A stretch of 64,000 bases of DNA from Escherichia phage vB_EcoM_WFbE185. The translations under genes and the position numbers were made by a program. Numbering within the stretch: position 1 is the stretch's first letter; every line of letters starts with the position of its first letter. Below are positions 1-30,462 of the stretch, piece by piece. Under the pieces are notes generated by a model. The model worked only from the letters and a program-made list of their open reading frames with translations, was not told where the DNA came from and made no database searches. Location of the stretch: the sequence record MK373778.1; one strand, written 5' to 3'.

Positions 1-2214
1 TTATTTGGCCGCTTCCACGGCCTTCATGAATTTAACGATTTGAGCGACCTGTTCTTTTGAAAGAGTACCACGTCGTCCCATGTATTCTGACACAATATGA
101 TAATTGGTTTCGAATTCAATAACCATTTTATCATCATTATCATAAGCATTATCTTTAAGCTTATCGAAAATTTTAGCACACAATTCTAACTTCTTATTCA
201 GGTCTGTATTAGTAGCACCTGCGAATCGATTCCATCCCCAACGATTATTTACTGTTGAGAGTTTTGCAAAGTCTTTACTGATTTCTTTGTTCTTAGAGCT
301 AAAATACTTACTAAGGAAGTTAAGCTCTTCATTACGAGTAATATGATTCAAATAAGGCTGTGCTCTACGACTTGGTGATACATACTCATCATAATCTACT
401 TTATCGATTAGCATAATATAGTCATTAATTGATTTTTCAAACAAACATTCTACTTCACCAAGTTTACGAACTTTCTTAGCAATCTGTGGACGGACTACAG
501 TGAACTCTTTAATACCTGACAAATCGGCAATACGGGTCAAGAAATTAGAGTCGTAGTTCAACCAACCTTTATCTGCGTCAAGACATTCAGCATTAGAACG
601 ATTACGAACTATAGCATAACCTTGGATTTCATCAGCTTCACTCGCTGGAATAAAGAGATCTTCCGATACCCAAACATCGTTTTCATTCTTAAAGAACCGA
701 TGAGCACTTGGGGATTTAGGACGAGGCCCATTAGAACGAGTCTTGACTTCAATCCATGGCTTAACGATTTGTAAAAGCTCTGAAGTCTTGTACATGTTAA
801 TGTTGTCGCCATCAAAGATAACTTTAAGGCGTTCCAGAAGTTTCATTGCATCTTCGTCTGTAGGGTCAACGAATAGTACGCTTTTACCAAAACCGCGTGG
901 AACTTTACCGGTTAATTTAACCTCGTCTTTAGACATTTCAATTGAATTAAGAGCTCGCATTAATGGAACGCGTCCCTTAACGTCGTCAATAACAATTTCA
1001 ACGTTTTTAATGTTAATGCCAATCAGACTGTTAATTGAAATAGTTGTCGATGAGCTACCACTTTCACGAATACGACGAAGACGAGGGGATTCAACGATAT
1101 CGTATACGACACCAAGATTACACCACTCAGGCCCCATTTTAAAACGTTTGTACAACTCAGAATAAGTTAGTTGTTCTTTAGAGTATTTCAGTGATTCAAT
1201 ATTAGACCCAGCCTTTTCCATGTATTTACGAGCGGTATAACCAAGAGAATCAATTTCACGGAACACATGACGCGGGTATTTACAATCAATCCATTTCTTA
1301 GAATCTTCAGCGAACAATTTAGCATCGATTTCTGCAACGCGTTTATGGATATTTGCTACTGTACGTTTATCAAATGACAATGCTTCACGAGACGGGGCTA
1401 CATCTAGTTCACCCATAGGGAATTTAATATAAGCTGTAGTGCATCGCGTCATCATCCATGTTTGTTCTTTAATAACACTTCCGATTGGATATACAATACC
1501 ACCATAAACAGCCATGATATTACCACGTTCACCCCATGGAGCTTCCTTGGCCAAATATACATCGTCAAATTCAGGAAAGTATTTAATATCTTTAACACCA
1601 CGAACTTCTGCAATATCACCTAGAGGACGCATAACATATGCAATTTCAGATGCGAACTTTTCAAAATCTTCTGGGTTAACAGGCACAACTACTTCAACGC
1701 CGGTCTGGTCATCAGGACCCATCTTATCTACAAAGGTCGGCTTAATTTGTGGACCCGTGTCATCTTGGTAGATTACGTAACCACGAACTTCACCGTTGTG
1801 ATAAGACGTAAGGTTAAACGTATCGGTATATGCTAGTGGAGCTTTAGAGCCGAGTCCGAATCCACCAATGAAATCGTTACTCGATGTTTTAGTTGAAGCA
1901 AAATATGAGTTATAGATTCCTGGCTCTTCGTCATTACCTCTAATGGTGAAATCGCTCATACCAGGACCAAAGTCTCGAACTACAAAACGTGGGTCCAAAC
2001 GACCTGGAGCCTGAACAATAAACTTATCGGTGCAACCATTAAGAATTTGTCCATCGATACAGTTTGTGATTAATTCACGTACACAAGCCAATTCTTTGTT
2101 TGTATAAAGGTCATTAGACAAAATCTTATAAACTTTGCTATTGCCTTGAATAGTGAATGCTGTGCTCTTACCGCCTGAACCAATAATCGTTTCTTTAGCC
2201 GTTTCAATAATCAT
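1..2214 (-). CDS. rIIA: rIIA protein (737 aa), GHKL/Bergerat-type ATPase-like N-terminal region
   Basis: Size and position match T4 rIIA (about 725 aa, next to gene 39 region); N-terminal motifs ELITNCIDG and DFGPGMS resemble ATPase N and G1 boxes. Confidence 0.8.
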   Translation of the reverse strand: MIIETAKETIIGSGGKSTAFTIQGNSKVYKILSNDLYTNKELACVRELITNCIDGQILNGCTDKFIVQAPGRLDPRFVVRDFGPGMSDFTIRGNDEEPGIYNSYFASTKTSSNDFIGGFGLGSKAPLAYTDTFNLTSYHNGEVRGYVIYQDDTGPQIKPTFVDKMGPDDQTGVEVVVPVNPEDFEKFASEIAYVMRPLGDIAEVRGVKDIKYFPEFDDVYLAKEAPWGERGNIMAVYGGIVYPIGSVIKEQTWMMTRCTTAYIKFPMGELDVAPSREALSFDKRTVANIHKRVAEIDAKLFAEDSKKWIDCKYPRHVFREIDSLGYTARKYMEKAGSNIESLKYSKEQLTYSELYKRFKMGPEWCNLGVVYDIVESPRLRRIRESGSSSTTISINSLIGINIKNVEIVIDDVKGRVPLMRALNSIEMSKDEVKLTGKVPRGFGKSVLFVDPTDEDAMKLLERLKVIFDGDNINMYKTSELLQIVKPWIEVKTRSNGPRPKSPSAHRFFKNENDVWVSEDLFIPASEADEIQGYAIVRNRSNAECLDADKGWLNYDSNFLTRIADLSGIKEFTVVRPQIAKKVRKLGEVECLFEKSINDYIMLIDKVDYDEYVSPSRRAQPYLNHITRNEELNFLSKYFSSKNKEISKDFAKLSTVNNRWGWNRFAGATNTDLNKKLELCAKIFDKLKDNAYDNDDKMVIEFETNYHIVSEYMGRRGTLSKEQVAQIVKFMKAVEAAK

Positions 2215-2226
2215 ATTTTTCTCTCA

Positions 2227-2427
2227 TCACAAGTTACGTTTAAAAATTTCTGCTACTTCAAGAAGTTCTTCTTTAGTAGCTGTATCGGTTTGTATTTTAT
2301 ATCGAATTTCTTTAAAGCGTTCTTTAAAGGACTCTGCTGATTCGATATCAAAAAATCTTTGGATAAGCCGGAATTCCCGGAGCACTGCTTTATCAAAAAG
2401 TTCCAAGTCCACGTTATATGTTCTCAT
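2227..2427 (-). CDS. small protein, positional counterpart of T4 rIIA.1
   Basis: 66-aa ORF immediately upstream of rIIA on same strand. Confidence 0.5.
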   Translation of the reverse strand: MRTYNVDLELFDKAVLREFRLIQRFFDIESAESFKERFKEIRYKIQTDTATKEELLEVAEIFKRNL

Positions 2428-2519
2428 AATATTCTCTTCAGTAGATTCCTAGGGCACTATTACTAAAGACCATATAATCTATCATCTTATGTGTAATAGT
2501 TCCTCAGGCGATTCAGGAT

Positions 2520-3620
2520 TTACGCTGTGAAGATTTTATCCCACATCGCAACAACTGCATCTCGGTTATACTTCTTCCATACGGCTTCAGCACGTTTAAC
2601 TCGAGCTTCGTATGTGTCAGTGAATTCTAATACAGCTTTTGTGTAAAGCGCAACTACTTCTTTCTTAGGAGTAGAGGAATCAATTTCTACACGCACAGTA
2701 TCTGGGTCGTATTCGAATGTCGCGTGCGGATAATCCTTAAAAACTAACTGAATCACAGGGACACCTTTAGAGATGGCTTCAATAGAACTATTCTCTACCG
2801 TACCCGTGTCAGGACACGTATTGATAAGTGCTTTAGCTGTTTTAAGACGTTCCATGATTTCACTGTGTGGAGCATCAATAATAACAGGATACTTAGCCGG
2901 TGGTGCCCATTTACTAGGACAGTATCCTGCACCATTTTCGCCTAGTGCTTTAATCGCTTCAAGAGCAACATCAGTACGACGCATTTTAGTGTCATAACGT
3001 TGTGCACTAATAATCAGATCAGTCGCCGGAAGAACTTCAGGTTTCTCATTCAAACAAATAACCGGATAATCTTCGGCTTCAAACAATGGATTTGCTCGCC
3101 AATAATCATAATCAATTTTGTCAGTAAGACCTGAAGTCATATAACAATATTTGCGTTCAAATTCACGGAAGGCTTTAGTAGGAGCATAACTCTTACCACC
3201 ATTCTTATGAATTTGAATAGTCTGGTCCCAAATTTGAACAATGCCACGAGATACCGGTTCAAATGGTGTTGCCATAAAATTCTTATGAACTTTAGAGAGA
3301 CCTGCGTCTTTAATTGCCTGAACGGTTAGTTTGGTCGGTTCCATTGTAACAACGAAATCGTACTCATTAATGCCGGCTAGTTCAACAATCTTACGAGCCA
3401 TAGTATAACTCATACCTAGACTGAATTTAGTCAGATGACCAACAGGATGATGATTAACCTTCCAGTCACCAAACGTGTCATTATCAAAGCCGATATAATC
3501 AATATCAGCACCGATGGACACAAGATATTTCAACACATTTAAATGTACTGCTTCAAGACCACCTTGTACACGTTCTGGGTTAAATGGGACTGCGCGAGAT
3601 GGGATAAACATAACTTTCAT
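2520..3620 (-). CDS. GT-B fold (GT4-like) glycosyltransferase, candidate DNA hmC sugar transferase
   Basis: 366 aa; N-terminal MKVMFIPS...GGLE and C-terminal GTVENSSIEAISKGVPVI resemble the GT4 E-x7-E donor-binding motif; occupies the slot where T4 has gene 60/mobA. Confidence 0.6.
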   Translation of the reverse strand: MKVMFIPSRAVPFNPERVQGGLEAVHLNVLKYLVSIGADIDYIGFDNDTFGDWKVNHHPVGHLTKFSLGMSYTMARKIVELAGINEYDFVVTMEPTKLTVQAIKDAGLSKVHKNFMATPFEPVSRGIVQIWDQTIQIHKNGGKSYAPTKAFREFERKYCYMTSGLTDKIDYDYWRANPLFEAEDYPVICLNEKPEVLPATDLIISAQRYDTKMRRTDVALEAIKALGENGAGYCPSKWAPPAKYPVIIDAPHSEIMERLKTAKALINTCPDTGTVENSSIEAISKGVPVIQLVFKDYPHATFEYDPDTVRVEIDSSTPKKEVVALYTKAVLEFTDTYEARVKRAEAVWKKYNRDAVVAMWDKIFTA

Positions 3621-3629
3621 AATTAAGCC

Positions 3630-3664
3630 TTATTAAAATTAAAATGAAGCTCCCGAAGGAGCTT
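3630..3664 (-). terminator. intrinsic terminator hairpin (AAGCUCC-UUCG-GGAGCUU) followed by U-rich tract, overlapping gene 39 stop
   Basis: Perfect 7-bp GC-rich stem with UUCG tetraloop on minus-strand RNA, then CAUUUUAAUUUU. Confidence 0.6.
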
Positions 3665-5480
3665 AGGACATCCATTCTTTACGAAGTTCTGAATCATCAC
3701 CCAACAACATTTCAAAGAGTTCTTTCCAATTTTCAGGAAGTTTAACTACGTCGTACACAGGGTTCTGAATCATTTCACGATACTCTGACTTTTCAAGGGA
3801 GCCTAATCCCTTGATGTATCGAATACTATGCTTAGGCAGTGTATCTTTAACTTCTTCATACTCAGCTACAGTATAAAACCATTTTTGAGTTTTGCCAATT
3901 TGTGCAATAATTACAGGTGTTTTAACAAAGCGAATACGTCCTTGTTCAAACAATTCGGGCCAATTACTAAAGAAAGCAAGCAAAGCAGGATAAATACTTC
4001 CAAGACCGTCGTGATCGGCATCGGTCATAATTGCAATATTACGATAGTTCGTATTCTCTGCCTTTTCACCAAGAATAAGACCTGTGATAGCACAGATATC
4101 AAAGAGTTCTTTGTTCTTCATCATATCAGCATATGACATACCCCAGCTATTCATCACCTTACCACGTAATGGGAATCCGCCGTGTAGTTCACGGTCACGA
4201 ACATCAATGAGATAACCAATTGCCGAATCACCTTCTGTTAAAAACAATGTCGTATCTGCATCTTTACCACATTGGTTAGCTTTAATATGCTTATGAACCT
4301 TAGCTTTAGTTGCCTTTTTAGCTGCTTTAGTTTCTGCAGCCTTTTCTGCTGCCAATTTACGAGCTAATGCTGCTTCAACAATAGGCATAATCAAGGCTTC
4401 GTTTTTAAGAAGTGCCTGAGCAATTTTCTTAGCATCTAATTGGATATGATTACGAATATCACCATACGTTGACGTTAAACGTTCTTTAGTCTGAGAATCA
4501 AAACGCATGTTGCTCATGTCTCTAATAAACATCAACATTGTGAGACATTCTTTAACACGAGCTTTAGTGACTTCAATACCCTTATATTTCTTTTTAATAC
4601 CGGGCAAAAGATGTTCGCAGATATCATCCATTACACATTCAACATGATGACCACCATTTTTAGTATGGATGTTATTCACATAAGTTAAATGACGGAAGCC
4701 ATCTGGTGATGTTGTGAATGCTATAGAGACTTTATCATTTTCTTGAATGATGTTATCTTCACCAAATTGTTTAGCAAATCGTTTAAAATTACCATCAACC
4801 TTTTTACCATTAAATGTGAACTTGATATCAGGATAAACGACTGCCAATGTTTGAAGTCTGTCTAAAGTAATATCTAAATAAATTTGAGATAAATTATGCT
4901 CTTCAAATGAAGAGAAATCAGGAGTGAAGATTACTTTAGTGCCTTTACCTTTAGATTTCTTAGAAGACCATGATTTGTTTTCCATTCCGTTTGAACAGTT
5001 AACAGTGATTTCGTTTTCGCCATCTGACGTGATGCCTGTAAACAACGTAGAGAAGATATTAGTTAAACTACTCCCGACGCCGTTCATACCACCAGTCTTG
5101 CGTTCAGAGTCATCACCAAAGTTACCACCGGCCTTTGGAATAGTCCAGGCTGCTACAGGTCCAGGAATTTGTTCACCTGTTTGGTCGGTAACTAAACCTT
5201 GAGGAATACCACGTCCGTTATCTTCCACAGAAACTTGATTATTTTTAATTTGCACATCAATTTTATTTGCAAACTTAAATGATGTACGAATAGCTTCATC
5301 AACCGAGTTGTCAATAATCTCATCGATTAATTTAACCAGACCAGGAACATATTCAACTTGTTGATATTTACCAAACAAAAAACGCTCGTGGGCTTCTTTA
5401 GCAGAAGAACCAATATACATACCACTACGTTTCTTAATATGTTCTACATCTGACAATACCTTAATTTCATTTTTAATCAT
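3663..5480 (-). CDS. 39: DNA topoisomerase II large subunit, unsplit (T4 gp39+gp60 equivalent), 605 aa
   Basis: GyrB-like signature KKRSGMYIGS and EDNGRGIP; continuous 605-aa ORF with no gene-60-type interruption. Confidence 0.9.
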   Translation of the reverse strand: MIKNEIKVLSDVEHIKKRSGMYIGSSAKEAHERFLFGKYQQVEYVPGLVKLIDEIIDNSVDEAIRTSFKFANKIDVQIKNNQVSVEDNGRGIPQGLVTDQTGEQIPGPVAAWTIPKAGGNFGDDSERKTGGMNGVGSSLTNIFSTLFTGITSDGENEITVNCSNGMENKSWSSKKSKGKGTKVIFTPDFSSFEEHNLSQIYLDITLDRLQTLAVVYPDIKFTFNGKKVDGNFKRFAKQFGEDNIIQENDKVSIAFTTSPDGFRHLTYVNNIHTKNGGHHVECVMDDICEHLLPGIKKKYKGIEVTKARVKECLTMLMFIRDMSNMRFDSQTKERLTSTYGDIRNHIQLDAKKIAQALLKNEALIMPIVEAALARKLAAEKAAETKAAKKATKAKVHKHIKANQCGKDADTTLFLTEGDSAIGYLIDVRDRELHGGFPLRGKVMNSWGMSYADMMKNKELFDICAITGLILGEKAENTNYRNIAIMTDADHDGLGSIYPALLAFFSNWPELFEQGRIRFVKTPVIIAQIGKTQKWFYTVAEYEEVKDTLPKHSIRYIKGLGSLEKSEYREMIQNPVYDVVKLPENWKELFEMLLGDDSELRKEWMS

Positions 5481-23857: not shown

Positions 23858-24406
23858 TTAACGAGCCCATTTGATGATTTCTGTAATCAAACCATTACGT
23901 TCGCTTGCATTAAATCCTATAACTTTGTTAGCACCATCATGATTAAGTAATTGATATGTTTGGATTTTGTTATGAATTGCAAACTCTTCAAAATGTGAAA
24001 TGACTGTATTAAAACCGAATGAAGACAAAGTAATAAGGTCGTCTTCAAAACTTTCAGTCATTTCGTTACGTGTTAAAATAATTGTGAACACATCATGGTT
24101 TTGGCAAAGACGAACATAGTCCTGTTCATAAACGTCAAGAATCGAGTCCGCATCTTGTCGAATACGTCCATAAACCCAGTTACTAATATATCCACGGTCT
24201 AACAGATAAATCTTAGTAGGGTCTAAATAATTCAACATCGTTTCGAAACAGCCAACTTCATTTCGAGACTTAACATCGAAACGCCCATCAACTGTTCGTT
24301 TAGGGAAATCAATCTTTACATATCTTTCACTAATTTCCATTATGTCATTAATGAAAGTTGTTTTACCAGCATTATCTGGGCCATCTACTAAAATAATTTT
24401 AGCCAT
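23858..24406 (-). CDS. P-loop nucleoside/nucleotide kinase-like protein (182 aa)
   Basis: Walker A VDGPDNAGKTT resembling thymidylate-kinase-type P-loops; occupies the T4 segA/beta-gt slot. Confidence 0.5.
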   Translation of the reverse strand: MAKIILVDGPDNAGKTTFINDIMEISERYVKIDFPKRTVDGRFDVKSRNEVGCFETMLNYLDPTKIYLLDRGYISNWVYGRIRQDADSILDVYEQDYVRLCQNHDVFTIILTRNEMTESFEDDLITLSSFGFNTVISHFEEFAIHNKIQTYQLLNHDGANKVIGFNASERNGLITEIIKWAR

Positions 24407-24407
24407 T

Positions 24408-25307
24408 TTATTCCTCGATTACGACATCTTCGTATTTAGGTATATTATACGGCGAAGAAATTAAAGCATTAAAGTAGATGAACTCACCAAGACCTGGATG
24501 GAATACTTCTTCAGGATTTTCGAAATATTGAATTTTCGGACGCCCTTTAAGAATTTGATAGTACTCTGTTTTAGTTGGTTTAAAAATTCGAATCAGCGCT
24601 TCTTCAGGATACTTATTTCTGTCGAAGCTATTATTTGGATCGGTTATATAAAGCGGTTGGCCTAATTGAATTGCACATTCAACCACTTGTTCAAAACGAT
24701 AGCACGGGTCACTAATTCGAAATGGATGAAAAATACCATCTAGATGAATAGTAGCCAAATCACCTACAAGACGCTGCATGATGGAAGGACGTATAACTTT
24801 CTGCGTTACGATAATCTTATTACCATCTGCACCGGCGTTAACCAGCACTTCTTTTTGACGTTCATTCAACACAGTAGTTTGAAGTGAACGATTAACCGAC
24901 AACATGTCGGTTTTTAAGAATTCGTCAATATAAAAACGTGGTTTATTAGGGTCTGCAGTGATATTGAAATTGAATTCTACGTCAAAAGCGCCATCATATC
25001 CAGTGATATCTGTGATTAGAAAATCACAATCATAATAAGCAATTAATGAATCAACCACAAATTCATTTTCAGACCAGAAATATTTACGAGTGTTATACGC
25101 GTTATCTTTATACCATAATGGAACAAACTTAAATTCTGGGAAAAGACGTTCACATTCTCTAATATCAGATGCATTACGTGGATATGTAATCACATCACCT
25201 GGATTAGCACGGTGCAAATGAAGTTGGAAGTTGCCATCCTTAAGGATAGCATACTGTCCAGTTTCATAAGACCGCATACTCAAGATAGGTACGCGGAAAA
25301 TAGCCAT
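24408..25307 (-). CDS. hypothetical protein (299 aa) at the T4 beta-gt position
   Basis: No motif recognised; location between uvsX and gene 42 is where T4 has beta-glucosyltransferase. Confidence 0.5.
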   Translation of the reverse strand: MAIFRVPILSMRSYETGQYAILKDGNFQLHLHRANPGDVITYPRNASDIRECERLFPEFKFVPLWYKDNAYNTRKYFWSENEFVVDSLIAYYDCDFLITDITGYDGAFDVEFNFNITADPNKPRFYIDEFLKTDMLSVNRSLQTTVLNERQKEVLVNAGADGNKIIVTQKVIRPSIMQRLVGDLATIHLDGIFHPFRISDPCYRFEQVVECAIQLGQPLYITDPNNSFDRNKYPEEALIRIFKPTKTEYYQILKGRPKIQYFENPEEVFHPGLGEFIYFNALISSPYNIPKYEDVVIEE

Positions 25308-26023
25308 TAGTCAAGAAATCCTTTAACATAATCAAAATCACGTTCAAACACATGGGCACTTACCATGGTATGAGTATAATCACCAACTTCTACACCACAT
25401 TCGTTAGCGATATAATGAAGTAATTTTCCTTGGAGATAAAAATCCAACTGCATAACAACAGCGCAGTTCTGAGAACGCATATGACAGTGGGTATAAAGCT
25501 TACCATCACGAATATAATAAGTCACTGAGTCAGTACATGGATATTCAAGCGTTTCGTCCGAATCAAGCAAAGCCTGATCAGAACTTTCTAGAATTTGGAA
25601 CACAACTCTTCGAGAGTTAGGCTTCTCTTTAAGTTCTTTTAGAAGAGCTGGTAATTGGGCCGCAATGCGAGGACCGTAGAAAGTGTTGAAGTTCGCAGGC
25701 AAAGCATCTGATTTTGGTTTAGAAATAAATTTAGCGACATTAGGATATGCCTTAAACGCTTCTTCTGCATCAGTACCACCAGAAATCATAAACTTCCAGA
25801 AGTCTTCGGCATATTCATAAGAGATGCGGTTAATACGTGGGTCGGTCATTTTGAATGATGATGGAGTGTCAACAACTACTGTCATAGACCCAATTTCATT
25901 ACAACGTCCAATACGAGAATCAGTTACGAATTCCGGGTTTTCTAAAATTTCACGATTGACTGCTTTAAATGCGGTTTGAAAATCTGCGGCTTTGATATAT
26001 TTCATTGTGTTATGTTTTCCCAT
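25307..26023 (-). CDS. 42: deoxycytidylate 5-hydroxymethyltransferase (thymidylate synthase family)
   Basis: 238 aa; NSRRVVFQ, YPCTDSV (catalytic Cys) and HMRSQN align with T4 gp42/TS motifs. Confidence 0.7.
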   Translation of the reverse strand: MGKHNTMKYIKAADFQTAFKAVNREILENPEFVTDSRIGRCNEIGSMTVVVDTPSSFKMTDPRINRISYEYAEDFWKFMISGGTDAEEAFKAYPNVAKFISKPKSDALPANFNTFYGPRIAAQLPALLKELKEKPNSRRVVFQILESSDQALLDSDETLEYPCTDSVTYYIRDGKLYTHCHMRSQNCAVVMQLDFYLQGKLLHYIANECGVEVGDYTHTMVSAHVFERDFDYVKGFLD

Positions 26024-26066: not shown

Positions 26067-26305
26067 TATTTGAATTTCTTGACAATGTTGATATAACGTA
26101 AAGCTTCAGCATCGATACTTCCAAGAACACTATGAAGAAATGCATCAGCGTAGTATTCCAATTGAACAGGTTCTTTAATCACTTTAGCCGCTTTAGTTTC
26201 AAACAGGCCCATCAGGGCCTTTTTAAGAATTTGTTCATTAGTGTTCAGTTTAATAGTCAAAATCTCTTCATTAAGTTGGTGGTTAAAAGTTTTTCTAGAA
26301 ATCAT
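26066..26305 (-). CDS. hypothetical protein (79 aa)
   Basis: ORF in operon context. Confidence 0.4.
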   Translation of the reverse strand: MISRKTFNHQLNEEILTIKLNTNEQILKKALMGLFETKAAKVIKEPVQLEYYADAFLHSVLGSIDAEALRYINIVKKFK

Positions 26306-27477
26306 TCCGGGTACCTCAAAGCGTCATCAGAGTTAGTTATATCAATAATAGATATAGAGTTTTCTGCTAACCCGTTTTTAGATAATTGACGTTTATAATA
26401 TCTTTCACAATATGTACACGTCGTCCCGCAGATTTCATTAGCACAATCGAAATCTGGATGTCTGAACCACCTTTTTTCTAAAAAGCCATCTAACAAAGAG
26501 GTTTCAATATTTACTGTATGTGAAAACTCGGTCTCATTTTCAAGAGTGAAAATAGTCTCTAAAGGCTTCCACAGTTCTAACAAATTACCTTCAAACTTTT
26601 CAGAAGCGTATGCTTCAAGAACTTTCAAAATGTAGTCTGTGCTACCTGTACGTCCTGAAACTTTGAATTGAGTGATACCAATATCATTATAAAGTTTCAA
26701 ATCTTGAGGACGAACAAAACGAGTTCTCAGCCAGTTAAATGGGTCTGTATCACGAGCTTTAATGCAGTGTTGCATTGGATATCCATTTAAGGATTTAGCA
26801 TCATCAGCGGTAACATCAGTACTATGGAAAATATAGCAAGAGTCACGATAGCTACAATGTGTTGTATACCCTTTACCAGCATTAGAACAGAACTCATTTA
26901 CAAGAACTTCAAATATTATATTGTTCTTATTGCAAAACTCTGCTGCACGCTTCAGGAAAGAAACTGAACGGTTCTTATGAATTCCGCAGCAGACCTTTTT
27001 GATATTATACTGGTCATGCAAGTATTTGATTTGAGTTACAGCATCGACATGTAGAATTGTTGAAACTTCAATCTCAATGTCTTTATTGACTTCACGAACA
27101 ATTTCCATAACAACAGGGTTAGCGATAGTAATACGCCATACGCCTATTGACCAAAGATACTGAACATAATCCTGAATAGCTTTCTTCTTCCACTCAACTA
27201 GTTCTCTTTTTGAACCAGGATTTATCGTGTTGAGTGTATAGTTAAAGCAAATACCTAATTCGTTACAACGTTTAACGTAATCTTCTAACATCTTTTTGTC
27301 AACGTCAGGAAGCCTAAAATCAGGTCTGGCTGCTACAAAAGCCATTTCTCTTGTAGAGCCGTATACTTCGTTTATCAAGCTATTAGGATAAGTTTTATTG
27401 AGCTCTACGATTTTATCAAGAAGAGCTAAATCAAAATTCGTTCCAATTTTAAAAGTATTCATTTTTTTGCATCTCAC
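26302..27477 (-). CDS. hypothetical protein (391 aa, Cys-rich), part of the sugar-modification cassette
   Basis: No confident family; Cys cluster FCSNAGKGYTTHCSYRDSC and C-terminal CGTTCTYCERYY; weak resemblance to peptidase-U32-type fold only. Confidence 0.5.
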   Translation of the reverse strand: MRCKKMNTFKIGTNFDLALLDKIVELNKTYPNSLINEVYGSTREMAFVAARPDFRLPDVDKKMLEDYVKRCNELGICFNYTLNTINPGSKRELVEWKKKAIQDYVQYLWSIGVWRITIANPVVMEIVREVNKDIEIEVSTILHVDAVTQIKYLHDQYNIKKVCCGIHKNRSVSFLKRAAEFCNKNNIIFEVLVNEFCSNAGKGYTTHCSYRDSCYIFHSTDVTADDAKSLNGYPMQHCIKARDTDPFNWLRTRFVRPQDLKLYNDIGITQFKVSGRTGSTDYILKVLEAYASEKFEGNLLELWKPLETIFTLENETEFSHTVNIETSLLDGFLEKRWFRHPDFDCANEICGTTCTYCERYYKRQLSKNGLAENSISIIDITNSDDALRYPE

Positions 27478-27518: not shown

Positions 27519-27920
27519 TTATAGATTCGGTTTATATGATTTAAATGTTTCGAATTCGCCTTTATTCATAAGAGCTTTGAATTCGTCAGGACGCATAGCT
27601 TTGTCGTCGATAATCCAATCATATACTGGTTTATGTGTTAGCAAATTATGGTACTTCAAACCAATGTTTTCCAAGTTCTGAATCAGACTTGGGAGAATGT
27701 CAATTGCTATACGACCAGGACCTACTGACTTCATACCGCGAGCAGTGTAAAGCGTTATGGTATGCCCTGCATCATACAGGGCATTAATGGCAGACACCAT
27801 TTCGACGTCCGGTTTGAAGTTCACGTAATCACGATTGTTATTCCACTCTGTTATACAATCGTCGACATCAAAACAAAGATTAAGCATGTTTTCTACACGG
27901 TGCATTAGATTCGTTCCCAT
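27519..27920 (-). CDS. HAD-superfamily phosphatase (sugar-phosphate phosphatase-like)
   Basis: 133 aa; HAD motif I FDVDDCIT (DxD); small KdsC/GmhB-like size. Confidence 0.55.
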   Translation of the reverse strand: MGTNLMHRVENMLNLCFDVDDCITEWNNNRDYVNFKPDVEMVSAINALYDAGHTITLYTARGMKSVGPGRIAIDILPSLIQNLENIGLKYHNLLTHKPVYDWIIDDKAMRPDEFKALMNKGEFETFKSYKPNL

Positions 27921-29645
27921 TGATGAGTGATATCGCCACCGATTGGACGATAGGAAACACCAGTTTCTTTATCAGTTAGTACCCATTTACCAGGATTTTT
28001 TGTAATCAGAGTAGCCGTTACAGGTTCTGCTACGTCATAACTAATAGAGCCGTCCTGAAGTACACGGCCCATGTTACGTAATTGCTTAGTCAGAAGTTCC
28101 ATGCCTTTATAATATGCGGCTACAGCTTTAAGTGGATTATTCTTGAAATAACCACCTAATGCAATCCAGATAATTGCTACAGCCAAATGATGATATTCAT
28201 TAAACGAACTCAGCTTTCCATATTTGTAAACTAATGGATTGATGTTAATAGTCACATTACAAGTTGTTTCATCAATAGTAAACTGTCCCCAGGTCGGATT
28301 AGCGTTGAATTCATCATAACCTGAAACAGCATAAAGCACTTTAGCTTCATCATACAATTTTGGCCCGTAAATCTTGGTTTCGCCAAAATATCCACGAGGG
28401 TCGATAAACTTGACTTCGCCATTATCAGTAATCATAGTATTACTGAAGTTCGGGTCACCATGAATAACAGAGTACTGTCCCTGAGAACGGTTATGATAAC
28501 GAATAAGGTGTTCTAAAGCTTGTTTCAGCATTGGCTTCAGACGTCCAATCTTAGTGTAGTTCACGTGTGTGATTTTACCAAATGAATCAATCAATGGTTG
28601 AATGCTTTCACAACGATCAATAACTTTCGTATAGAATTCTTTAGTGAAATCACGACGAACAGTTTCAGGACTTACAAAATAAGTGTCTGTGCTGAATTTC
28701 AGTGCATCTAAAATCGCATCAACAATTTGTGGACGAGCAAGACTTGATTTGGATTTAATATATTCAAATGCTGGCTTACCTTTAATGCGTTCCATTTCAA
28801 AGTTATTTTCATTAACAGAAACTAACTGAGGAACTGAATCTGATTTCACTTTCAAATACCACGAAATCTCATCTTTCTGAAGAGCTCGACCCTGTTCGGT
28901 TAATGCGAATTTAGTTACAGTTTCTTCACCAATTTCAACTGCATTAAAACTACGATTAAGTTCACGAACTTCATGGGCTTTTTCAAGTTTAGGCATATCA
29001 CCTAAATCAATTAGATTCATAAGCTCTGATTTATTGAATGCGCTGCCGTAAAGGAATTCTACGAAATCACGTCCTTTGCAGTATTCATGAATTTCCTCAT
29101 CGGTAGAACCCATATAGAATTCCCAGTCTTTGAACTGATAAATTCCTACAACATTACCGCCTGTTTCACCTACATTAGTGATATTTTCACCATCGAAATT
29201 ATACCGACATTCATCACCCTTAACATAGATTGCGTTAACATTCCAAGACCATGAACCAAAATCGGGAATAATATCACACCAGTTAACAATTACGTTATGG
29301 CCGTCTAAATCTTTGTGTAATTTAGCAAGAGCATAAGCAGAACCGTATGCTTCATCAACTGTACGAATAGTCACATTGAACCCTTCTTGCTCACAATAAG
29401 CTCGCTTCATCAACTGTACGAATAGTCACATTGAACCCTTCTTGCTCACAATAAGCTCGAACAGTTTCAGCAAATTTTGAATGAACTACTACAATAATTT
29501 CATCTGCGCCAAGGTCAGAATAAATTGTATACAAATTGCTCAGAATAGTGTCTTGTTTATAGTTAACAAGCACCTTAGGAATATGATGCGTTATTGGATA
29601 TAAACGAGTTGCCAATCCAGCACCAAGAATAACAGCTTTTTTCAT
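27905..29645 (-). pseudogene. bifunctional sugar-1-phosphate nucleotidyltransferase / APH-fold sugar kinase, reading frame broken by a 55-bp tandem duplication
   Basis: N-terminal fragment (29391-29645) has the NTase signature ILGAGLATRL; C-terminal ORF (27905-29413) has kinase motifs HGDPNFSNTMI and FIDPRGYFG; both fragments contain RAYCEQEGFNVTIRTVDEA; deleting one repeat copy restores a 561-aa ORF. Confidence 0.65.
29350..29459. repeat. perfect direct tandem duplication, 2 x 55 bp (cttcatcaactgtacgaatagtcacattgaacccttcttgctcacaataagctcg)
   Basis: Two identical adjacent 55-nt copies at 29350-29404 and 29405-29459; 55 is not a multiple of 3, so the nucleotidyltransferase gene is frameshifted. 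Confidence 0.9.
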
Positions 29646-29686: not shown

Positions 29687-29830
29687 CTAGTTAAAGCATT
29701 CATACTTTGCTTGTAGTCCAATCATAATCCATCCAATTACAAGTGGTGGAATCATTACTGGAGCCGTTAAGCTCCAGTAGATAGTCATGACAAGCATCAA
29801 TAGTAAAAGTCCTATTGTTATTGCTTTCAT
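29687..29830 (-). CDS. small hydrophobic membrane protein (47 aa), not in ORF track
   Basis: MKAITIGLLLLMLVMTIYWSLTAPVMIPPLVIGW...; ATGA start/stop overlap with the SIS gene. Confidence 0.4.
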   Translation of the reverse strand: MKAITIGLLLLMLVMTIYWSLTAPVMIPPLVIGWIMIGLQAKYECFN

Positions 29831-30462
29831 TGTTCGCCTCGTAACATGGCACCTAGTGCACCGCCTGGATGGAACTTAAGGAAATCATTAGAGGTAAATC
29901 CACGTTCAGACGAAAGGTTGATAGCAAACGTATCGATAAGTGCTAACAACAATGTAGTAGACATTGTCGGAGCTAAAGAGTTCTCGTCAACTTCTACCGC
30001 GATACCGGTACAGAACGTATAATCAAAAAGAGCTTCGTATTCTTGTGGAATGTCAGGGTTACAATGTAACAGAATCTGTTTAACCTGAGGACGAATCATA
30101 CGAAGATGTTTAGCAACACCTATCATTTCTTCAGTCTTACCAGAACGGCTGATGTGAACTAATACATCATTAGGTGCAATAAATCCTGCGTCACCATGAG
30201 AATAATGCCCAGTGTTCAAGTACATACTTGGGATACCGAGTGAAGCAAAAGTCTCGGAAGCTTTAGTTGCGATATTAGCGTTCTTACCAACACCTGTAAT
30301 AATTACACGACTTTCATAATTACTCAGTCCAGGGCGACGAAGAGTTTCAAGAATAGCATTATACCGAGCAGGGTTTTGACTAATTACTTTAGCCATAGTG
30401 GCAAGAGATGAAGCTTGTTTTACGATTGCGTCAATAGCGATAGTGATTGGTGTAGTTTTCAT
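29827..30462 (-). CDS. SIS-domain sugar-phosphate isomerase (arabinose-5-phosphate/phosphoheptose isomerase-like)
   Basis: 211 aa; SIS signature VIITGVGKNANIA and SRSGKTEE. Confidence 0.65.
   Translation of the reverse strand: MKTTPITIAIDAIVKQASSLATMAKVISQNPARYNAILETLRRPGLSNYESRVIITGVGKNANIATKASETFASLGIPSMYLNTGHYSHGDAGFIAPNDVLVHISRSGKTEEMIGVAKHLRMIRPQVKQILLHCNPDIPQEYEALFDYTFCTGIAVEVDENSLAPTMSTTLLLALIDTFAINLSSERGFTSNDFLKFHPGGALGAMLRGEQ

Follow-up and report, generated by a model that had tools for sequence, protein, structure and literature searches.

The T2/T6 beta-glucosyl-HMC-alpha-glucosyltransferase is a second-step enzyme that makes gentiobiosyl-hmC. An arabinose disaccharide is found in the DNA of RB69, where MS/MS and NMR identified both the monosaccharide and beta-D-Araf-(1->3)-alpha-D-Araf, the latter joined by an ether bond to C5 of 5-hydroxy-dC (PMC13326640), and in phage NP, where mono- and di-arabinosyl cytidine occur at 1:4 (PMC13390438). 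The methylene bridge was absent by LC-MS/NMR of RB69 (PMC13326640) and by HPLC/MS of NP (PMC13390438), and the earlier hmC assignment for RB69 has been called erroneous (PMC13390438). RB69 ORF003c was proposed as a GT-B arabinosyltransferase from HMM/HHpred evidence (Thomas et al. 2018, PMC6024577). As gp3, it is the proposed 'beta-arabinosyltransferase 2' of Lee et al. 2026 (PMC13326640), who proposed RB69 gp46:47 as the first arabinosyltransferase. The slot given for the Mosigvirus glycosyltransferase gene lies between rIIA.1 and gene 39 (PMC13390438). In vitro, gp76 and gp77 of phage DLP3 use UDP-Araf to attach a third Araf to RB69 DNA and are active only together; no single DLP3 transferase, the supposed first one included, acted on 5hoC DNA (PMC13326640).

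The window analysed here, a stretch of 64,000 nucleotides from Escherichia phage vB_EcoM_WFbE185 (MK373778.1), begins with rIIA (1..2214, minus strand), a 737-aa ORF in the same position as T4 rIIA, and rIIA.1 (2227..2427, minus strand; Pfam T4_RIIA1, E=2e-30). Next, at 2520..3620 and likewise on the minus strand, is an ORF of 366 codons with an ATG start. Read along this ORF, rIIA.1 and rIIA lie downstream and gene 39 (3663..5480, minus strand) lies upstream. Between the gene 39 stop and the ribosome-binding site of this ORF, a hairpin scan located a UUCG-loop hairpin (AAGCTCC-TTCG-GGAGCTT, 3647..3664, minus strand) followed by a T-rich tract, an arrangement that looks terminator-like.

Gene 39 encodes an unsplit topoisomerase II large subunit of 605 aa, equivalent to T4 gp39 plus gp60 by Pfam, PHROG and alignments. 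Its product contains DNA_gyraseB, HATPase_c and Toprim domains and matches the PHROG 'DNA topoisomerase II large subunit'; residues 1-474 are 79% identical to T4 gp39 and residues 493-605 are 89% identical to the segment of T4 gp60 encoded after the bypass. The corresponding interval of the T4 record contains rIIA.1, 60 (with a 50-nt bypass), 60.1 and a defective mobA. An earlier sequence-only reading of the window had described a 366-aa ORF in the rIIA-gene 39 slot, a continuous 605-aa gene 39 free of the T4-style gene 60 split and bypass, and gene 60 and mobA at this interval in T4. The ORF list contained the ORF exactly as described, the T4 gp39 and gp60 parts aligned within one frame, and the T4 record agreed. 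In the Dhakavirus JS10, rIIA.1 and an unsplit gene 39 are separated by ~590 bp of unannotated DNA; JS10 carries a homologue of the second transferase of the window (GT1, below) and no ORF003-type gene.

At the window's 37% G+C, the probability of 366 stop-free codons by chance is ~7e-12. The ORF was found by tblastn at 95-100% identity in ~155 RB69-group (Mosigvirus) Escherichia and Shigella phage records, including Shf125875 and JS09, both of which are named in PMC6024577, and this conservation at an identity of at least 95% establishes it as a real, conserved gene. Phage NP has a 99.7% identical copy, and the same gene has the coordinates 2523..3620 in each of the Shf125875, G53 and OLB35 records. 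The protein matched PHROG 8302 (function 'unknown') with E=1.6e-222 over residues 1-366 of 366. It is 98% identical, with six substitutions, to PDB entries 9iqz and 9ir0, released on 2025-07-16 under the titles 'phage HY126 glycosyltransferase' and 'phage HY126 glycosyltransferase with UDP'; apart from these substitutions nothing substantive distinguishes it from the crystallised protein. RB69 ORF003c/gp3 (NP_861693) and the HY126 enzyme share with it 98-100% identity, a length of 366 aa and the slot between rIIA.1 and gene 39. Sequence comparison thus identifies the product of 2520..3620 as RB69 ORF003c/gp3, that is, as a GT-B glycosyltransferase of the HY126 family. The gene is one already described (proposed in 2018, structure deposited in 2025, role refined in 2025-2026), and nothing new was uncovered in this respect. 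Two other origins considered for the ORF, a chance reading frame and a homing-endonuclease remnant like T4 mobA, were rejected.

An AF2 model of the protein built from a six-sequence alignment had an overall pLDDT of 62; the C-terminal domain was modelled well, the N-terminal domain poorly (below 50 at residues 115-188). As the model was mediocre, we relied instead on the 98%-identical crystal entries. Foldseek with the model returned 9ir0 and 9iqz at the top (E about 1e-52), and all remaining matches were GT-B enzymes, with BshA, PimA, WaaG, tetrahydrobiopterin (BH4) glucosyltransferase, LmbT and SenB as structural neighbours. Two Rossmann-like domains with a C-terminal nucleotide-sugar site are present, and a near-identical crystal is UDP-bound according to the title of 9ir0. 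Fold prediction, a check suggested along with the original description, therefore agreed with a GT-B enzyme, the HY126 structures ranking first. The companion check, a comparison with known DNA glycosyltransferases, detected no homology to T4 agt or bgt, with an hhalign probability of 0.2% against T4 beta-GT and no Pfam family. T4 alpha-GT (PDB 1xv5/1y6f) and beta-GT put glucose directly on hmC, and no similarity of the window's protein to them was found by hhalign, run against beta-GT only, or by Pfam.

The description of the protein as 'GT4-like GT-B' was upheld for the GT-B fold, and for GT4 likeness at the level of fold only. Pfam gave no family even at E<=1, NCBIfam gave no match, and a PDB-sequence profile search was significant for 9iqz/9ir0 only, with GT4 enzymes appearing only at E>1. 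We aligned the donor site of the ORF003 family with that of its most remote relatives, the GT4 outliers P0015, which has significant Pfam Glyco_transf_4/Glycos_transf_1 matches, and P0016, which has weak Pfam GT matches only. R208, R214 and E281 were conserved, and G20 nearly invariant (at least 90%), across the family and the outliers; judged from this alignment, G20, R208/R214 and E281 are the usual GT4-like Gly loop, diphosphate pair and ribose-binding Glu. The EX7E motif is incomplete: the second Glu is kept and invariant (E281), and the first is replaced by Thr272-Gly273 at the position where P0015 has E-TFGISNF-E. E94 and E276 are invariant acids specific to the ORF003 family, and Glu94, in the N-terminal domain, is absent in the GT4 outliers. 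The protein is outside GT4 by sequence models and GT4-like by fold.

The best structural neighbours, PimA, BshA and WaaG, are retaining GT4 enzymes that have the Gly loop, R/K pair and ribose-binding Glu in common with the window's protein. Unlike them, it falls below every Pfam threshold, lacks the first EX7E Glu and has as its proposed acceptor a sugar borne on DNA, and its beta product may need inversion. It is possible, if doubtful, that the ORF003 family represents an inverting beta-arabinofuranosyltransferase on a normally retaining GT4-like scaffold that has lost the first EX7E Glu and gained Glu94. Glu94 would then serve as the general base activating O3 of the DNA-borne arabinose. If true, this would be an unusual change of mechanism within a GT-B lineage, and it would explain how a single donor, UDP-Araf, could give an alpha first and a beta second linkage.

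The complete modification cluster of the window lies between uvsX and the DNA polymerase gene, with all of the following genes on the minus strand. A small nucleotide-kinase-like protein (23858..24406) is the RB69 gp45 equivalent (PMC13326640 Table 1) and has a weak dTMP-kinase match. It is followed by the second, unrelated GT-B glycosyltransferase, GT1, of 299 aa (24408..25307), the equivalent of RB69 gp46:47 and the proposed first (alpha) arabinosyltransferase on 5hoC. Next come a thymidylate-synthase homologue with a 5-hydroxy-dCMP synthase signature (25307..26023; RB69 gp48 equivalent; Pfam Thymidylat_synt and alignment) and a peptidase-U32-like protein (26302..27477; RB69 gp50 equivalent; Pfam). 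The sugar-activation genes that the sequence-only reading had placed at 26-30 kb were found there. They encode a HAD-type sugar phosphatase (27519..27920; RB69 gp51/HY126 AfhF equivalent, PMC13326640; NCBIfam capsule-biosynthesis phosphatase subfamily, E=2e-13), a bifunctional NTP-transferase/kinase for UDP-arabinose (27905..29645; RB69 gp52:53/AfhE equivalent; Pfam) and a KdsD/KpsF-like arabinose-5-phosphate isomerase with a SIS domain (29827..30462; RB69 gp55 equivalent; Pfam/NCBIfam).

The nature of the modified base follows from an alignment of the ThyA homologue with its counterparts in E. coli (ThyA), T4 (gp42) and Acinetobacter phage Maestro. At the position of E. coli D169, where ThyA and gp42 have Asp, the homologue has Asn, and at N177 it has Asp; its identity is 70% to the Maestro enzyme and 26% to T4 gp42. 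D169N is a predictive signature of 5-hydroxy-dCMP synthases (Lee et al., PMC13326640). The enzyme at the gene-42 position thus carries the signature of a 5hodCMP synthase rather than that of the dCMP hydroxymethylase that would produce hmC, which indicates that the base is 5-hydroxycytosine, not hmC. The 5hodCMP synthase and UDP-arabinose genes co-occur with the 2520..3620 ORF in the window, the UDP-arabinose synthase gene being frameshifted. Of the original proposal of a DNA sugar transferase acting on hmC, the assignment to a GT-B enzyme of a DNA-sugar pathway is retained, hmC is not, and a role in the first-sugar step is probably also lost.

The frameshift in the bifunctional UDP-arabinose synthase gene is due to a perfect 55-bp tandem duplication at 29349..29459, detected by TRF, which interrupts the gene. 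The duplication was found in none of 153 related records, and removal of one repeat copy restores an ORF of 561 aa. Either the assembly is in error here or the mutation is real and leaves the phage unable to make UDP-arabinose; if real, both transferases would be without donor.

GT1 had no Pfam match, and an AlphaFold model from a 40-sequence alignment reached a pLDDT of 94.6. No similarity between GT1 and the 2520..3620 protein was detected by BLASTP or hhalign, and the lack of homology by hhalign means that the two transferases of the window are not recent paralogues. The GT1 gene adjoins the ThyA-type synthase gene, at the position that beta-gt occupies in T4 directly beside gene 42. Its family was found in 348 phage records, among them Escherichia (Mosigvirus and Dhakavirus), Klebsiella, Serratia, Enterobacter, Proteus, Yersinia and Acinetobacter phages and others, and comprises at least 138 clusters at 90% identity, compared with 5 for the ORF003 family. 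Occurring in all arabinosylating T4-like lineages, GT1 is a better candidate for the first sugar than the 2520..3620 protein. Thanatos TH1_063, a 300-aa protein of GT fold that is probably a GT1 homologue, is reported to be a UDP-xylose pyrophosphorylase and not a transferase (PMC12838424).

The ORF003 family was far more restricted, occurring in 211 phage records from Mosigvirus and Acinetobacter phages only; the homologues in Acinetobacter phages (n=55, tblastn) are less than 60% identical to the window's protein. An exhaustive HMM search of 1.84 billion representatives recovered 12 proteins. Scans of IMG/VR and JGI metagenome contigs placed the family at Mosigvirus and Acinetobacter-phage loci only, and hence revealed no new lineage or context. 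Mosigvirus genomes carry one copy and Acinetobacter phages two, and there is none in the lineages that have GT1 only (Dhakavirus JS10, Klebsiella, Serratia, Yersinia and other phages). In Maestro the two ORF003 paralogues, 078 and 077, stand in tandem immediately after ThyA-GT1-kinase; they share 43% and 41% identity with the 2520..3620 protein over its full length and 56% with each other. The order of the genes (ThyA, GT1, kinase, GT, GT) equates the pair with DLP3 gp77/gp76.

Copy number can be set beside DNA chemistry in the small set of phages for which DNA analyses exist. Thanatos DNA is mono-arabinosylated, and the one transferase of this phage is syntenic with GT1; RB69 DNA contains mono- and di-Araf-5hoC, and DLP3 DNA contains tri-Araf (PMC13326640). 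The published chemistry gives up to two sugars in RB69, NP, Bas46 and Bas47; Maestro is cited as arabinosylated, in source passages that give no sugar count. In Thanatos, RB69, NP, Bas46, Bas47 and DLP3, there are therefore as many ORF003 genes as there are sugars after the first, copy numbers of 0, 1 and 2 tracking chain lengths of 1, 2 and 3. Copy number is thereby a candidate for predicting, from the genome, how heavily therapeutic T4-like phages decorate their DNA. Since DLP3 gp76/gp77 extend RB69 DNA, members of the ORF003 family act on DNA that is already arabinosylated. DLP3 gp76/gp77 (beta-arabinosyltransferases 2/3; Maestro 077/078) are full-length homologues of the window's protein at 41-43% identity. 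They differ from it in forming a tandem pair inside the cluster of a phage with tri-arabinose, whereas the window has one copy 21 kb away and its lineage stops at di-arabinose.

Taken together, it is likely that the 2520..3620 protein is the Mosigvirus accessory DNA arabinosyltransferase, using UDP-Araf to add the second (beta1->3) Araf to alpha-Araf-5hoC DNA at most sites. The gene, its fold, its near-identity to a UDP-bound crystal, its distribution and its genomic linkage were observed directly, and the DNA chemistry of RB69 and NP and the in-vitro activity of the Acinetobacter-phage paralogues come from published work. Homology to the experimentally active DLP3 gp76/gp77-type enzymes is provided by Maestro 078/077. 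From these we infer that the acceptor is mono-arabinosyl-5hoC in DNA, which linkage is formed and in what order the two transferases act. The ThyA homologue (25307..26023) would make a 5-hydroxy-dC mononucleotide that replaces dC in phage DNA, and the isomerase, kinase/uridylyltransferase and phosphatase at 27.5-30.5 kb would make UDP-D-arabinofuranose. GT1 would then put the first alpha-Araf on the 5-hydroxyl. The 2520..3620 protein would bind UDP-Araf in its C-terminal Rossmann domain, through the G20 loop, R208/R214 at the diphosphate and E281 at the ribose, and would transfer a second Araf onto O3 of the first, giving beta-D-Araf-(1->3)-alpha-D-Araf-O5-dC at most, not all, cytosines. The bulkier disaccharide may add protection against host nucleases and defence systems. 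In PMC13216743, citing Mahler 2025, a Bas46 mutant without the arabinosyltransferase Aat is described as sensitive to a defence system. That the mutant could be assayed implies that it is viable, as expected of an accessory step, provided that Aat is the product of this gene. In the logic of its action the proposed enzyme may be likened to the T2/T6 second-step enzyme, which likewise extends a monosaccharide on a modified cytosine at a fraction of sites only (see also PMC6024577, PMC13390438); the two differ in sugar (glucose versus arabinofuranose) and base (hmC versus 5hoC).

Several observations count against an accessory role. The enzymes closest in structure are GT4 members of the retaining type, and inversion would be needed to make a beta linkage from a UDP-alpha-D-sugar; the first EX7E Glu is missing, and the N-terminal domain is poorly modelled. 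The failure of any single DLP3 transferase to act on 5hoC DNA, which leaves the order of action resting on comparative data, and the pyrophosphorylase activity reported for TH1_063 also weigh on this side. Both bear on whether the protein might instead be the primary transferase, attaching the first arabinose straight to the 5-hydroxyl of 5hoC. This was in essence the 2018 proposal, here with the base corrected, in which ORF003c was 'the' arabinosyltransferase (PMC6024577), and the supposed first transferase had no demonstrated transferase activity in PMC13326640, its probable Thanatos homologue being reported as a pyrophosphorylase. The ORF003 family is absent, however, from ~140 records with a synthase-adjacent GT1, JS10 included; the sole transferase of mono-arabinosylated Thanatos is syntenic with GT1, and the Acinetobacter paralogues act on DNA that already bears arabinose (PMC13326640). 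We therefore regard a primary role as unlikely.

A non-DNA acceptor (for example a phage protein, a free nucleotide or a glycolipid of the host envelope) would fit the nearest structures, PimA, WaaG and BshA, which act on lipids or small molecules, and the distance of 21 kb between the gene and the modification cluster; an obligate partnership with another transferase would fit DLP3 gp76 and gp77, which are active only as a pair, Mosigvirus having a single copy. Either is very improbable given that the Acinetobacter paralogues are embedded in a DNA-modification cluster and modify DNA in vitro (PMC13326640), and that ORF003 copy number tracks the extra arabinoses on DNA. Least credible of all, and extremely improbable, is the original suggestion of an hmC glycosyltransferase functionally analogous to T4 alpha- or beta-GT. 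The GT-B fold is indeed like that of the T4 alpha- and beta-glucosyltransferases, and the phage is T4-like with a ThyA homologue at the gene-42 position. That homologue, however, shares no more than 26% identity with T4 gp42 and has the D169N change that marks 5hodCMP synthases, RB69 and NP DNA contain no methylene bridge (PMC13326640, PMC13390438), and the transferase itself showed no similarity to T4 beta-GT and no Pfam match, phage DNA glucosyltransferase models included if Pfam has them. The accessory arabinosyltransferase remains the reading we prefer.

In practical terms, the analysis corrects the substrate from hmC to 5-hydroxycytosine and identifies a second transferase that the sequence-only reading had missed. 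Most database records of the 2520..3620 protein still read 'hypothetical', and some of its Acinetobacter homologues are labelled 'DNA alpha-glucosyltransferase'; annotation of ORF003-family proteins lags behind the literature.

At the gene-42 position, the minus-strand gene at 25307..26023 encodes a thymidylate-synthase homologue in which the residues equivalent to D169 and N177 of E. coli ThyA are Asn and Asp, respectively (motif MRSQNCAVVMQLD). Asn at ThyA D169 is the published mark of flavin-dependent 5-hydroxy-dCMP synthases (PMC13326640). Judged by these residues, the signature is of the 5-hydroxy-dCMP synthase type and not that of a dCMP hydroxymethylase.

In Escherichia phage JS10 (Dhakavirus, NC_012741), gene 39, encoding the topoisomerase II large subunit, is unsplit, as it is in the window. 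The synthase-adjacent transferase, the proposed first arabinosyltransferase, is present in JS10, and the gene for the ORF003-type protein, the proposed accessory arabinosyltransferase, is absent from that genome; the rIIA.1-39 interval (2437..3024) spans approximately 590 bp and holds no annotated gene. JS10 DNA is predicted to carry mono-arabinosyl-5-hydroxycytosine only.

The bifunctional NTP-transferase/kinase gene for UDP-arabinose (27905..29645, minus strand) contains a 55-bp tandem duplication at 29349..29459 (2.0 copies, 100% match), which shifts the reading frame and breaks the gene into two ORFs, one of 84 aa for the N-terminal part and one of 502 aa with a TTG start. Removal of one repeat copy in silico restored a single 561-aa ORF. 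The duplication was missing from all 153 of the 153 related phage records, each of which aligned as two pieces. Two readings of the duplication are open: an artefact of assembly, or a naturally occurring loss of function that would deprive both arabinosyltransferases of their donor.

Upstream of the accessory transferase ORF (2520..3620, minus strand), approximately 25 nt from its start codon, lies a GC-rich minus-strand hairpin (3647..3664), which has a UUCG tetraloop, precedes a T-rich tract and shares two bases (3663..3664) with the gene 39 stop codon. Its sequence is terminator-like, suggesting that the transferase gene may be expressed partly independently.

The 2520..3620 protein and its homologues are "hypothetical protein" in nearly all database records. 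Several Acinetobacter-phage homologues are labelled "putative DNA alpha-glucosyltransferase", which is probably wrong as to sugar, anomer and acceptor. Tegunavirus is a genus of Yersinia phages, and one record whose organism name begins "Tegunavirus" appears to contain an Acinetobacter-type homologue; this may be a labelling oddity or an additional lineage with the accessory transferase.
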